Source: Thermoanaerobaculia bacterium (lineage in GTDB: Bacteria > Acidobacteriota > Thermoanaerobaculia > Multivoradales > JAHEKO01). From it: DNA of 64,000 bases. Every line of letters begins with the position of its first letter. The stretch's first letter is position 1. This document shows positions 9,724 through 25,584 of this stretch, piece by piece. The DNA is taken from positions 354-64,353 of the forward strand of contig JBAUDS010000369.1 of the NCBI GenBank assembly GCA_049678185.1, read 5' to 3'. The translations under genes were made by a program, and so were the position numbers. The notes beneath the pieces were generated by a model. The model searched no databases. It was not told the origin of the DNA and was given only the letters and a program-made list of their open reading frames with translations.

Positions 9724-10503
9724 ATGCCGCTCAGCGGACAGAGACTTCTCACCATCACGACTGCTCTCATCGCTTGCGTTGCGCTTGGCTGCGGCACGGT
9801 CCCGGTGAGCGCCGACTCCACCCCTCTGCCCCTCCAGATCCCCAGGGACCGACCCCTGCGTGCCGGATTCTTGATCGTCGACGGGGTCTACAACACCGAG
9901 CTGACGGCTCCCTACGACGTCTTTCAGCACACCAGTGCACATTTGGGCGCGGGGTCCGGCATCGAAGTTTTTACCGTCTCACCGGATGGAGGCGAGGTGA
10001 CCACCGCCGAGGGACTTCGGATCGTCCCGCACTACAGCTTCGAGACCGCTCCCCCGATCGATATTCTCGTTGTGCCTAGCGGCGAGCACAGCCGGGACGC
10101 CGACAGACAGAACCGGGACCTCATCCAATGGGTGAGCAAGACCGGCGCGCAGGCACACTTTGTCGTCTCCCTGTGTTGGGGAGCCTTTATCTTGGCCGAG
10201 GCCGGACTACTGGACGGCCACTCGTGCACCACCTTCCCCGGTGACTACCGACCCTTCGCCGAGGCCTTTCCCGACCTGGATCTCCGCATCAACGTCACTT
10301 TTGTCCACGACGGCCGCGTGCTGACCTCCGAGGGAGGCGCCCACAGCTACGACGTGGCCATGTACCTGGTGGATCTGCTGTTTGGAGAAGAAGTCGCGAA
10401 GGGGATCGGTCAGGGGTTGCTGATCCCGTGGCCTCCCACCGGCGGTGTACGGCCCGCCTACGTCACCGATCCTGGCATGTCTCTCAAAAGATCGACCGAG
10501 TGA
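9724..10503 (+). CDS. DJ-1/PfpI family protein (class I glutamine amidotransferase-like fold), probably a lipoprotein.
   Basis: Signal peptide with lipobox-like LIACVALGCG. DJ-1/PfpI core (ILVVPSGE...HFVVSLCWGAFILAEAGLLDGHSCTTFP) with the nucleophile-elbow Cys (SLCWGA). Confidence 0.8.
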   Translation: MPLSGQRLLTITTALIACVALGCGTVPVSADSTPLPLQIPRDRPLRAGFLIVDGVYNTELTAPYDVFQHTSAHLGAGSGIEVFTVSPDGGEVTTAEGLRIVPHYSFETAPPIDILVVPSGEHSRDADRQNRDLIQWVSKTGAQAHFVVSLCWGAFILAEAGLLDGHSCTTFPGDYRPFAEAFPDLDLRINVTFVHDGRVLTSEGGAHSYDVAMYLVDLLFGEEVAKGIGQGLLIPWPPTGGVRPAYVTDPGMSLKRSTE

Positions 10504-10598
10504 TGACCGGATTCATCGCCGTCATGTTCATCCTCCCGGTCGCCATCGTCGTCGCGGCGATCGTCCTCGGTCGACGCGCCGGCTCATGGAAGAACTAG
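10503..10598 (+). CDS. Micro-ORF encoding a 31-aa single-TM peptide (MTGFIAVMFILPVAIVVAAIVLGRRAGSWKN). Possible small accessory subunit of the downstream symporter.
   Basis: Its ATG overlaps the DJ-1 stop by 1 nt (TGATG). Its TAG stop lies 10 nt inside the symporter start, in a different frame (ATG 10586). The peptide is a hydrophobic helix followed by a basic tail. Support is positional only. Confidence 0.35.
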   Translation: MTGFIAVMFILPVAIVVAAIVLGRRAGSWKN

Positions 10599-22240: not shown

Positions 22241-23313
22241 AGAAGATCCGCGTCGCCGTTGTGGACGACTCCTCCTTCATGCGCAAGGCGGTGGTGCGCA
22301 TGCTGGCGCCGGAGCCGCGCATCGTGGTCGTGGGTACCGCGGCCTCGGGTGAGGAGCTGCTGACACAGCTCGATACCTGGCAGCCCGATGTCGTCACCCT
22401 CGATCTCTTCATGCCCGGGATGGGTGGTCTGCGGACCCTCGATCGCATCATGGAGCGCAAACCGCTGCCGGTGATTCTCCTGTCGAGCCATTCGAGAGAG
22501 CGGGCGCCGCTGACCATCGAAGCACTGCACCGCGGCGCGGTCGACTTCATCGACAAGCAGCGCTACTCACTGGTGGATTTTCAAGCCCTGGGCAGGGTCC
22601 TGATCGACAAGATACTCCTGGTCACCGGGGCGCATGTCCATCCCCCGGACAGAGGCGCACACACAGGCGCACCAGAGGAGCACACGGGACCCGAAAGGCG
22701 GGCGCATCCCCGCGTGAGAAGCCCGCAGGCCACCCGAGCCCCTGCCTACGACCTCCTGCTGATGGGAGCCTCCACCGGCGGACCGGTGGCGATCCGCGAG
22801 ATCCTGGAGGACCTGGGTACCGATCTGCGGGTACCGGCAGTGGTGGTTCAGCACATGCCCAAAGGTTTTACCAGGGCTTTTGCCGAGCGGCTCAACAGCC
22901 AGCTACCGGTGCCGGTGCTCGAGGTCCTGGGCAGAGAGCCCCTGCTGCCTTCGACGATCTACATAGCACCTGCCGAGCGCCACCTGGTGATCCGCGGACG
23001 CCCTGGAGAGTTGACCGTCGTCGCCACCAGCGATCCCGACGACGTCACCCACCGACCCTCGGTCGATGTCCTCTTCTCCTCCGCAGCCAGCATCCCCGAG
23101 CTGCGGGTTGTCGGCCTGCTGCTCACCGGGATGGGGAGCGACGGCGCCAAGGGGATGAAGGAACTGGCCGGCGCCGGCGCCTTCACCCTGGCCCAAGACG
23201 CCGATACCTCGATTGTCTACGGCATGCCACGGGCCGCCGCCGAGCTCGGGGCCGCCCACGAGATCCTGCCGCTCGGCCAGATCGCCGCCCGGCTAAGAGA
23301 TTTAATTGGGTGA
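22236..23313 (+). CDS. cheB: Protein-glutamate methylesterase CheB (receiver domain plus CheB methylesterase).
   Basis: Receiver (KKIRVAVVDDSSFMR...VVTLDLFMPGMGG) plus methylesterase (LLLMGASTGGPVAIREIL...VVVQHMPKGFTRAFAERLN...GMGSDGAKGMKEL). A GTG at 22236 overlaps the cheR TGA (GTGA). An in-frame ATG at 22210 is an alternative start. Confidence 0.85.
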
Positions 23314-23402
23314 CAGGCTACTCAATTCAACGATTTGGACTGTAGGTCCGAGCTCGGGCAGTTGCAGCCAGTCCAAATCGTTGAATTGAGTAGCCTGTCA
23401 CC
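23309..23402. repeat. Perfect 34-bp inverted repeat separated by a 26-nt spacer (94 bp in total).
   Basis: Arm 1 is 23309-23342 (GGTGACAGGCTACTCAATTCAACGATTTGGACTG). Arm 2 is 23369-23402 and is its exact reverse complement. The spacer contains the small palindrome CCGAGCTCGG. The arms are AT-richer than their surroundings. Arm 1 overlaps the cheB stop codon. Confidence 0.85.
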
Positions 23403-23412
23403 GATCGGGCTG

Positions 23413-23976
23413 TCACCCTTCGGGCATCTCCGGCTCGAGGTCTATTCCCAAGCCGTCGGCCAGCCGGTTGTAATAGGCAAACATTCCCGTGACCTGGACG
23501 ATGTCGTGGATGGCGTGGTCGTCGAAACCCTGGTCGCGGATTGGCTGGAGATCCTGCTCCACCACCTGGCCGGGTGTCAGGGTGAGCTTGGCCACAAACT
23601 CGAGCATCGCCCGGTCGGCCGGGGCGAGGTCGGCTTGGGTGTAGTCGGTCTTGATCGCCGCCACCAGCGCCTCGGCCCCCGCCTGTCCCTGGACCTCTGC
23701 CCGGAGGTCCTCGCCATGGGCCTCGGCTCAGTAGTGACAGTCGTTGACCGCCGAGACCGTGGTGGCGATCATCTCCCGCTGTGCCCGGGTCAGCCCGCTC
23801 TCCAGTGAGTGCATGATCTCGATATAGGTCTGGGTCGACGAGCGCAGCACCTTGGGTCGCAGGCTCTGGATGCTGATGATGTTGTAGACCTTCCCCGCCC
23901 GCTTGACCGCGGCGTTGTAAAGCTGCTTCAACAGCCCCTCGGCCTCCCCCGGGGGAATCACCCTGATCCAAGCCAT
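23413..23976 (-). CDS. AhpD-like / carboxymuconolactone decarboxylase family protein (187 aa) with an in-frame TGA at the second Cys of the CxxCxxxH motif. Candidate selenoprotein (alternatively a pseudogene).
   Basis: Two ORFs in the same frame (23728-23976 and 23413-23664) are split by a single TGA at 23728-23730. The translation reads ...VSAVNDCHY[TGA]AEAHGEDLRAEVQGQ...AAIKTDYTQADLAPADRAMLEFVAKLT. The motif CHY-U-AEAH matches the AhpD CxxCxxxH active site. The frame stays open and conserved-looking for 83 codons after the TGA. A 7-bp perfect hairpin lies 17 nt downstream of the UGA. Confidence 0.5.
23691..23710 (-). promoter_or_regulatory. Candidate bacterial SECIS-like hairpin (GGACCUC-CGGGCA-GAGGUCC) 17 nt 3' of the in-frame UGA.
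   Basis: Seen directly: a 7-bp perfect stem with a 6-nt G-rich loop in the mRNA sense. Its spacing from the UGA is within the range reported for bacterial SECIS elements. No covariance model was run. Confidence 0.35.
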
Positions 23977-24288: not shown

Positions 24289-25584
24289 ATGAGATCCACC
24301 AACAGGTTCCTGTCAGGAGTAGCTCTGTTCGTCGCCGTAACGATGCTCTATCTATGGGGGTACTCCGACGGACGCGAGGGCAGATCGCCCGGTCTCATGG
24401 GAGTGCTGCGCGCGGCTCCCACCGAGGCGACAAACGACTGGTCGCCCACCAAGCCCTATCCGTCACATGAGGTCTACTACCCCGGCACCGAGGAGCTGGG
24501 ACCGGACGAGATGCGCGTCATTACGTGCGGCTCCGGTATGCCGATGCCGCGCCTCAAACAGGCTGCCGCCTGCATCCTGGTGGAGCTGGGCAACGGGGAC
24601 AAGTTCATCTTCGATATGGGAACCGGCTCCATGGAGAGACTCTACGCACTCGGCATTCCGCTGGACTTCATAGACAAGGTCTTCCTCACGCACCTTCATG
24701 CGGATCATATGGGCGACCTGCCGGCGTTCTTTATCTATGGCCCACAGAACAACCGCTCGGTGCCTCTGCGGGTTTGGGGGCCCGGAGGAGGAGGCACGCG
24801 TCCGGAGTGGGGAACCAAAGCGGCAATGGACCACATGCTGGAGATGTGGGCATGGATGACCGGCACTCTGGTCGGCACCATCGACACACGCTCCTTCGGC
24901 CTCGAAGTCACGGAATACGACTGGTCGGCAGTCAATGGGGTCATCTACGAGGAGAACGGCGTGGTCATCAGAAGTATCCCTGCCGTCCACTTCGAGCAGT
25001 CGGCCAGCTTCATCATGGAATGGAACGGCCTCGAGCTGGCGTTCTCCGGGGACACACTCCCCAACAACTGGTGGATCGAGCACACCCAGGGCGTCGACCT
25101 CTCGATCCACGAATCCATCTTCATGCCCGACATGGCGATGAAGAAGTGGAAGTTCTCGGGTGAGGAAGCCTTGAACGCCATGACGAAGATCCATGCCAAC
25201 CCCGCCTTCTTCGCCAAGGCGATGGCCATGACGCGGCCGAGGCACGCCGTCGCCTACCACTTCCAAAACGACTTCGACACGCTCCCCGCCACCATCAGGA
25301 CCGTCGAGCAGATCTACGACGGCCCGGTGGATTATGCGCAAGACCTGATGGTGTGGAACGTCACCAAGGAAGGTGTGCGTACACGGATGGCCGTCCCCAA
25401 CCCGGAGTACTACCCGACACCTCCGCTTCAAGAGAAGCAAATCACAGTGGGCGGCGATAGTTACCAGACCCCCGAGTGGGTGCTCGATGGATTCCCGGAT
25501 GAGATGGATGCGGTCGCGAAGCAGATCTACGCGGACTTCAACAAAGAGCACGGAACAAAATTCGAGTTCAAGTTGAAGCCCTGA
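24289..25584 (+). CDS. MBL-fold metallo-hydrolase (RNase Z / arylsulfatase-like beta-lactamase superfamily).
   Basis: HxHxDH motif (THLHADHMGDL), plus downstream His/Asp ligands (AVHFEQ, SGDT). N-terminal hydrophobic segment (signal/TM). GC content and codon usage are visibly lower and more AT-ending than in neighbouring genes. Confidence 0.8.
   Translation: MRSTNRFLSGVALFVAVTMLYLWGYSDGREGRSPGLMGVLRAAPTEATNDWSPTKPYPSHEVYYPGTEELGPDEMRVITCGSGMPMPRLKQAAACILVELGNGDKFIFDMGTGSMERLYALGIPLDFIDKVFLTHLHADHMGDLPAFFIYGPQNNRSVPLRVWGPGGGGTRPEWGTKAAMDHMLEMWAWMTGTLVGTIDTRSFGLEVTEYDWSAVNGVIYEENGVVIRSIPAVHFEQSASFIMEWNGLELAFSGDTLPNNWWIEHTQGVDLSIHESIFMPDMAMKKWKFSGEEALNAMTKIHANPAFFAKAMAMTRPRHAVAYHFQNDFDTLPATIRTVEQIYDGPVDYAQDLMVWNVTKEGVRTRMAVPNPEYYPTPPLQEKQITVGGDSYQTPEWVLDGFPDEMDAVAKQIYADFNKEHGTKFEFKLKP

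Follow-up and report, generated by a model that had tools for sequence, protein, structure and literature searches.

We have analysed a 64,000-nucleotide stretch of a metagenome-assembled genome (MAG) of a Thermoanaerobaculia bacterium from the phylum Acidobacteriota (assembly GCA_049678185.1, contig JBAUDS010000369.1, positions 354 to 64,353; hereafter the window), and in particular an AhpD-like gene that is interrupted by a single in-frame UGA at codon 83. Judged from its sequence, the locus is very probably a genuine AhpD-like selenoprotein gene in which this UGA is read as selenocysteine (Sec). We favour this reading because the UGA lies at the catalytic column of one constrained reading frame, because TGA stands at the same codon in all 80 of the closest relatives that were compared, and because a hairpin linked to the UGA follows it. 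The only new point is that the public annotation wrongly splits this copy in two; neither the mechanism nor the family is new.

The AhpD-like gene and its in-frame UGA

The coding strand, which a first-pass annotation made from the letters of the DNA had left unstated, is the minus strand. The gene starts with an ATG at 23976, and its N-terminus, MAWIRVI, is common to the homologues in our alignment. That annotation had described two same-frame open reading frames (ORFs) parted by a single TGA at 23728-23730, which would give one protein of 187 aa if read through, and the sequence agrees: translation finds no other in-frame stop within the 187-codon frame, and the read-through product runs ...SAVNDCHY-[UGA]-AEAHGEDLRAEV... 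across the site. The ORF listing gives the pieces as 82 aa (23976..23728) and 83 aa (23664..23413, from a GTG start at 23664). Between the UGA and the terminal TGA lie 104 open codons rather than the 83 first reported, which is the length of the longest GTG-initiated ORF. The GC content of third codon positions is 0.90 in the 150 nt on either side of the in-frame TGA, and within the 64-kb window this is the only intragenic in-frame TGA flanked on both sides by coding-like composition. Three other in-frame TGA candidates in the window were rejected, as they represent neighbouring genes that happen to share a frame. TGA ends 12 of the 21 genes identified in the window and is the commonest ordinary stop, which indicates that the genetic code is standard and that any recoding is site-specific.

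In GenBank the gene appears as MGB5813952.1, a 'peroxidase' of 82 aa, and MGB5813951.1, a 'hypothetical protein' of 83 aa, and it is split in at least four MAG records, much as the first-pass annotation had expected of gene callers faced with such a gene. An exact database look-up of the full-length protein with X at the UGA position found no entry. Three independently assembled MAGs (GCA_049678325.1, GCA_049670325.1 and GCA_049674325.1, PGAP-annotated Thermoanaerobaculia bacterium) carry the 564-nt gene in identical form; two of the MAG contigs (L170 and L171) are 100% identical and the third locus (L172) is 99.98% identical, and the 82-aa fragment is present on 16 contigs. A TGC or TGT at this codon, which would have pointed to a plain Cys protein, is thus not what the three independent assemblies contain.

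A search of 5.8 billion proteins returned as the closest relatives (55-71% identity) nothing but half-proteins of about 102-125 aa, the N-terminal pieces stopping exactly at ...CHY and the C-terminal pieces beginning 1-3 codons past the stop. Full-length relatives of about 185 aa were just 40-51% identical and mostly had Cys at this column, and the nearest species representative found was at most 65% identical to the window protein. For relatives at the level of the genome, DNA was taken from one genome per GTDB species; 533 loci were confirmed and the best 80 kept, ranked by likeness to the read-through query and hence enriched for near relatives of the window gene. The aligned codon was TGA in 80 of these 80 loci (78 parsed together, L021 and L054 separately), which derive from Acidobacteriota, Chloroflexota, Planctomycetota, Gemmatimonadota, Marinimicrobia, Myxococcota, Binatia, KSB1 and others. 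When the Cys clade was used to seed a metagenome scan, the codon at the column was TGC in 45 forms, TGT in 37 and TGA in 1. The comparison proposed by the first-pass annotation, of Cys against Sec in aligned homologues, therefore gives TGA throughout the close relatives and a Cys codon in 82 forms of the Cys clade, and on this codon evidence the family appears to be a classical Sec/Cys pair. The ratio of non-synonymous to synonymous substitution rates (dN/dS) lies at about 0.14-0.53 for the half downstream of the UGA and at about 0.01-0.55 for the upstream half, values that are rough since dS is near saturation. Both halves of the gene are under similar constraint, in keeping with the earlier impression that the downstream frame looked conserved.

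The Sec column of the alignment is occupied by W, R or G in some database homologues. For one of them, P0003 (L083:1056-1607; GCA_025491055.1, JAOQFC010040566.1), the database protein has Trp, yet the codon is TGA, so its gene caller applied a code in which TGA is Trp; some database 'CxxW' AhpD-like proteins are thus probably hidden selenoproteins. A separate case is a 997-nt JGI metagenome contig (Ga0438785_423091; L084:99-647) with AGA (Arg) at the column and an intact hairpin, ACGGAG-CGGGU-CUCCGU; either UGA has recently mutated to AGA here or the sequence is in error. Among the 80 TGA loci, the match in a Chloroflexia MAG (L021:10001-10707) spans 707 nt by tblastn as against the usual 530-560 nt or so, and its CHY-TGA motif is out of frame with the start of the match, which points to an N-terminal half that carries an insertion or frameshift.

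With Cys placed at codon 83 for profile scoring, the protein reaches 147.2 bits against TIGR01926 'peroxidase-related enzyme' (cutoff 81.8), residues 3-182 covering profile positions 2-177 of 178. It also scores above the cutoffs of the AhpD core domain TIGR00778 (41.2 against 27.8 bits) and of the Pfam carboxymuconolactone decarboxylase (CMD) domain PF02627 (36.3 against 23 bits), and the CMD/AhpD assignment made in the first pass holds. The score for canonical AhpD, TIGR00777, lies below the cutoff (22.4 against 191.95 bits), so the protein is AhpD-like and not AhpD proper. Scores are likewise below the cutoffs for the AhpD-related CFYUT (seleno)protein NF041238 (75.2 against 175 bits) and the YciW-related groundwater (seleno)protein NF053654 (36.6 against 310 bits).

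The nearest solved structures are those of the Cys-containing AhpD-like proteins 3C1L (Mlr4105), 6K40 (DR1765 of D. radiodurans) and 2OYO (E = 1e-26 to 1e-25); with 2PFX and 2PRR added, the matches extend over almost the full length at E = 1e-26 to 1e-22 and share a C-x-Y-C-x-x-x-H-G centre. In 3C1L, 6K40 and 2OYO, as in the Cys homologues, the UGA column aligns with the second Cys of this motif, where the first-pass annotation had placed it within CxxCxxxH. The solved proteins differ from the predicted product of the window gene in having Cys at the Sec site, with no in-frame stop and no need for a selenocysteine insertion sequence (SECIS). A DR1765 mutant is sensitive to H2O2, and the CxxC cysteines matter in complementation (PMC8945050). 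The proton relay of AhpD comprises Glu118, Cys130, His132, Cys133 and His137 in the M. tuberculosis enzyme and Glu36, Cys48, Tyr50, Cys51 and His55 in PA0269 (PMC3141380). In our family alignment E68, C80, Y82 and H87 are nearly invariant. The spacing of 12 between E68 and C80 equals that of Glu118 and Cys130 and of Glu36 and Cys48, and the spacing C80-x-Y82-U83...H87 equals C48-x-Y50-C51...H55 in PA0269 and C130-x-H132-C133...H137 in M. tuberculosis AhpD. It is likely, to judge from alignment and spacing, that E68/C80/Y82/U83/H87 correspond to the AhpD relay. M. tuberculosis AhpD, an adaptor that reduces AhpC, belongs to the same CMD/AhpD fold family but to another subfamily (TIGR00777); the window protein has Tyr in place of His132, as does PA0269, and no ahpC is adjacent to the window gene.

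All the defining features open to in silico tests are present in the gene, which hence belongs to a family already described, as the first-pass annotation had noted. The Sargasso Sea selenoproteome of 2005 introduced an 'AhpD-like protein' (COG2128, CxxU) as a new selenoprotein family, represented by 27 sequences with predicted SECIS elements (PMC1088965). In the Global Ocean Sampling data of 2008, 'AhpD-like 1' ranked fourth in abundance among prokaryotic selenoprotein families, with 299 Sec and 902 Cys forms (PMC2398784), and a 2026 review lists the AhpD-like protein as TIGR01926, CxxU, with one Sec (PMC13188914). The window gene shares with these proteins the TIGR01926 membership, the CxxU motif with Sec at the second Cys, abundant Cys homologues, and a SECIS-like hairpin with a small, G-containing apical loop just after the UGA. 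Nothing categorical sets it apart; it comes from a Thermoanaerobaculia MAG, and its sub-clade has the hairpin in a different register from most other members. The value of the observation lies chiefly in annotation: evidently along with hundreds of orthologues from soil and sediment MAGs, the gene has been deposited as two fragments, which hides a probable selenoenzyme and means that selenium use is under-counted in Acidobacteriota and other uncultured phyla.

The hairpin downstream of the UGA

The perfect 7-bp stem noted in the first pass (GGACCUC-CGGGCA-GAGGUCC, starting 17 nt after the UGA) lies on the minus strand at 23710-23691. It spans 17-36 nt after the UGA, over the codons for (E)DLRAEV(Q). 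The consensus model for bacterial SECIS (bSECIS) elements specifies a loop of 3-9 nt, an upper stem of 4-16 bp and a G at one or both of the first two loop positions, as a rule with G or U after it, with 16-37 nt from UGA to loop and a free energy of -7.5 kcal/mol or lower (PMC13188914, Fig. 2A). The window hairpin fits every one of these constraints, having a 6-nt loop, a 7-bp stem without mismatch, 24 nt from UGA to loop and -11.3 kcal/mol for the hairpin alone. The G is at position 2 of the loop C-G-G-G-C-A, and loops beginning with CGG are found in 41 Sec-form loci. The element of E. coli fdhF is likewise a stem-loop that follows the UGA directly within the coding sequence and has a small, G-containing apical loop. 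It has no sequence similarity to the window hairpin, a predicted SECIS; such lack of similarity is usual among bSECIS elements (PMC13188914). A scan of the whole window at the Rfam gathering thresholds gave 0 hits.

Single-sequence folding is uninformative in so GC-rich a context, and comparative tests were used in its place. When the 45 nt that follow the UGA are scanned in 77 Sec-form genes, the best simple hairpin has a mean energy of -7.7 kcal/mol, compared with -3.8 kcal/mol elsewhere in the same genes. In the Cys forms the best hairpin averages -2.3 kcal/mol, and the difference between Sec and Cys forms persists in three GC bins. A hairpin that fits the constraints at -5 kcal/mol or lower is present in 83% of the Sec forms, as against 11% of the Cys forms; the closest Cys form, whose peptide DDLRSE is similar, has a stem degraded to about 4 bp. 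An alignment of the 20 sequences of the window sub-clade has the 7-bp stem paired in 96.4% of cells, as against 23-48% for slid controls. In 12 of these sequences the closing pair is C-G, in 5 it is G-C; a change of C-G to U-A is also seen once, and two pairs show double changes. These results support the SECIS reading of the first-pass annotation, in that the hairpin fits the published model, accompanies the UGA rather than Cys and is conserved as structure within the sub-clade.

Other branches of the family place their hairpins differently. When loci L016-L080 are compared with L001-L015 (for example L046, L049, L067, L070 and L080), three UGA-to-loop registers emerge within the one family. 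Most members outside the window sub-clade use a register of 16-18 nt over the peptide HHGAGLR, with loops CGGGU or GGN; the window clade uses 24 nt over DLRAEV, with the loop CGGGNN; and a third register, of 28 nt, lies over RNLRQLT with the loop AGUU. It is conceivable, though we would stop somewhat short of calling it probable, that the SECIS hairpin has been relocated or re-invented at least twice, in step with the amino acids after Sec, which would co-evolve so as to encode each stem. RNA structure would in that case dictate part of the protein sequence close to the active site, and the family would offer a natural data set for studies of SECIS turnover. The coordinates of the gene and its predicted elements are collected in Table 1.

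Table 1. Positions in the window of the AhpD-like gene and of the elements predicted within it.
Feature	Position	Strand	Detail	Basis
AhpD-like (TIGR01926 'peroxidase-related enzyme') selenoprotein gene (predicted), complete	23413..23976	-	187 codons + terminal TGA 23415-23413	
In-frame UGA, codon 83, predicted selenocysteine	23728..23730	-		translation, aligned TGA/Cys codons, PDB alignment
Active-site motif	23716..23739	-	C80-H81-Y82-U83-A-E-A-H87 (CxxUxxxH)	translation
Glu68, predicted proton-relay glutamate	23773..23775	-	12 residues before Cys80	alignment and spacing
Predicted bacterial SECIS core	23691..23710	-	5' arm 23710-23704 GGACCUC; loop 23703-23698 CGGGCA; 3' arm 23697-23691 GAGGUCC	

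Contrary evidence and rival explanations

Several observations weigh against decoding of the UGA as Sec, or against the 7-bp hairpin as its signal. There is no selA, selB, selD or tRNA-Sec within the 64-kb window: ARAGORN returned 0 tRNAs of any kind, NCBIfam scans of 20 window proteins showed no Sec machinery, and six-frame tblastn with E. coli SelA, SelB and SelD as queries found no homologue of any of the three, the sole match being the GTPase domain of LepA. About 5 kb of extra flank to the left of the window holds no sel genes, and ARAGORN found no tRNA-Sec in the window together with 81 loci. When the 63 nt after the UGA are folded as a single sequence the result is not significant (z = -0.63 against shuffles), and the minimum free energy (MFE) structure of this stretch uses a pairing other than the 7-bp stem. 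The contrast between hairpin energies close to the UGA and elsewhere has a Mann-Whitney p of about 4e-24, with sequences that are not independent; the compared loci are phylogenetically related, so such p-values overstate their independence. Finally, when codons are resampled with the protein held fixed, 27% of the window resamples match the hairpin, and the family-wide mean z of only -1.1 is a modest excess. On these figures the stem follows for the most part from the conserved peptide DLRAEV as written in GC-rich codons.

Indirect support for Sec decoding comes from the same tblastn queries, which identified one true SelB in 1.43 Mb of loci. It is encoded in an Acidobacteriota MAG (L043:6431-8350, JANMAA010000228.1; TIGR00475, 396 bits against a cutoff of 242), 1.7 kb upstream of that genome's own AhpD-like UGA gene (10001-10528). 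The two are separated by genes for a dihydrofolate reductase-like and an HxsA-like protein. A protein search seeded on this SelB matched only Pyrinomonadaceae-type relatives; SelB is common in Pyrinomonadaceae-type Acidobacteriota, a group that likewise carries UGA forms. We did not find Thermoanaerobaculia mentioned as Sec users in the two 2026 papers that were searched. If the present reading is correct, this Thermoanaerobaculia lineage carries the Sec-decoding trait.

The resampling figures bear on the possibility that the UGA does encode Sec but that the 7-bp hairpin is a mere by-product of the peptide DLRAEV, the functional SECIS being another or larger structure. The alternative pairing and lack of significance of the 63-nt MFE fold point the same way, as do the hairpins of the other sub-clades, which sit in registers of 16-18 or 28 nt as opposed to 24. 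However, the stem is missing in the Cys forms, including the nearest one with its similar peptide, the closing pair co-varies by way of changes in two different codons, and all of the bSECIS constraints hold for the window hairpin. Moreover, known bacterial selenoprotein genes carry the SECIS within the coding sequence right after the UGA (PMC13188914), so that a constraint on the encoded peptide is to be expected. We consider this explanation improbable.

Explanations that dispense with Sec altogether fare worse. The locus could be a pseudogene or a truly split gene, in which the TGA terminates and leaves an 82-aa fragment only, perhaps with a separately initiated C-terminal fragment. This is what GenBank and the gene callers in effect annotate, and the lack of visible Sec machinery in the window would suit it. 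Yet the TGA falls at the identical catalytic column in all 80 relatives across phyla, the downstream half is constrained as much as the upstream half, the ORF listing shows no start codon in the first 21 codons past the TGA, and a split here would sever the CxxC...H active-site helix, which is continuous in the solved structures; we regard a broken gene as very unlikely. No more credence is due to the idea that the UGA is read as a standard amino acid (Cys, Trp, Arg or Gly) through near-cognate or suppressor decoding or a reassigned code. The W, R or G residues of some database homologues and the single contig with AGA and an intact hairpin lend it some support, but the 'W' homologue that was examined has TGA in its DNA, the code of the window is standard, and a UGA-linked hairpin that fits a SelB-type SECIS model and is absent from Cys forms would be unexpected for plain read-through. 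Least probable of all, to a point where it can be neglected, is a sequencing or assembly error for TGC or TGT. Nothing specific speaks for it beyond the single base that separates TGA from a Cys codon, and TGA is present in all 80 relatives; the three identical MAG copies, with the fragment on 16 contigs, exclude a sequencing error.

If the UGA is decoded as Sec, as we favour, a single gene would give rise to a 187-residue AhpD-like thiol/selenol oxidoreductase of TIGR01926 / COG2128. The stem-loop after the UGA would serve as the bacterial SECIS and recruit SelB-GTP-Sec-tRNA(Sec) to the ribosome, where the UGA would be decoded as Sec and not as a stop, with translation of the remaining 104 codons. 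Sec83 would take the place of the second Cys in the CxxC redox centre of AhpD, within the predicted E68/C80/Y82/U83/H87 relay, and the enzyme may cycle between selenol/thiol and selenenylsulfide forms, reducing either a peroxiredoxin-type partner or peroxide.

Genomic context and minor observations

On one side of the AhpD-like gene lies a convergent chemotaxis operon, CheA/CheW/MCP/HEAT/CheR/CheB, that ends at 23313; on the other are a divergent MBL-fold hydrolase (24289-25584) and then LepA and HemW. Since this neighbourhood has no adjacent peroxiredoxin or sel gene, the context gives no clue to a partner. The MBL-fold hydrolase, on the plus strand, scores 392 bits against NF041257 'guanitoxin biosynthesis GntH' (cutoff 333), and PGAP names it likewise; it has an additional Pfam match to Anti-Pycsar Apyc1. 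The GntH name is probably over-specific in a Thermoanaerobaculia MAG.

A perfect 34-bp inverted repeat at 23309-23402 (arms 23309-23342 and 23369-23402, with a 26-nt spacer) separates the convergent cheB and AhpD-like genes, its left arm overlapping the cheB stop codon. It is single-copy within the window and is found in all three MAG assemblies, and as RNA it would fold at -67.4 kcal/mol (z = -13). It lacks a T-tract and so does not qualify as a canonical intrinsic terminator; a terminator-like hairpin acting in both directions is one possibility and a palindromic insertion another.

The nearest Cys-form homologue, P0002 (CHYC; L081:930-2889 and L082), is found inside a mer-like cluster, in the order ArsR/HTH_5 regulator, MerT+HMA, a second small CMD-domain protein and the AhpD-like gene. 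This setting hints at a metal- or mercury-related role for the Cys paralogue.

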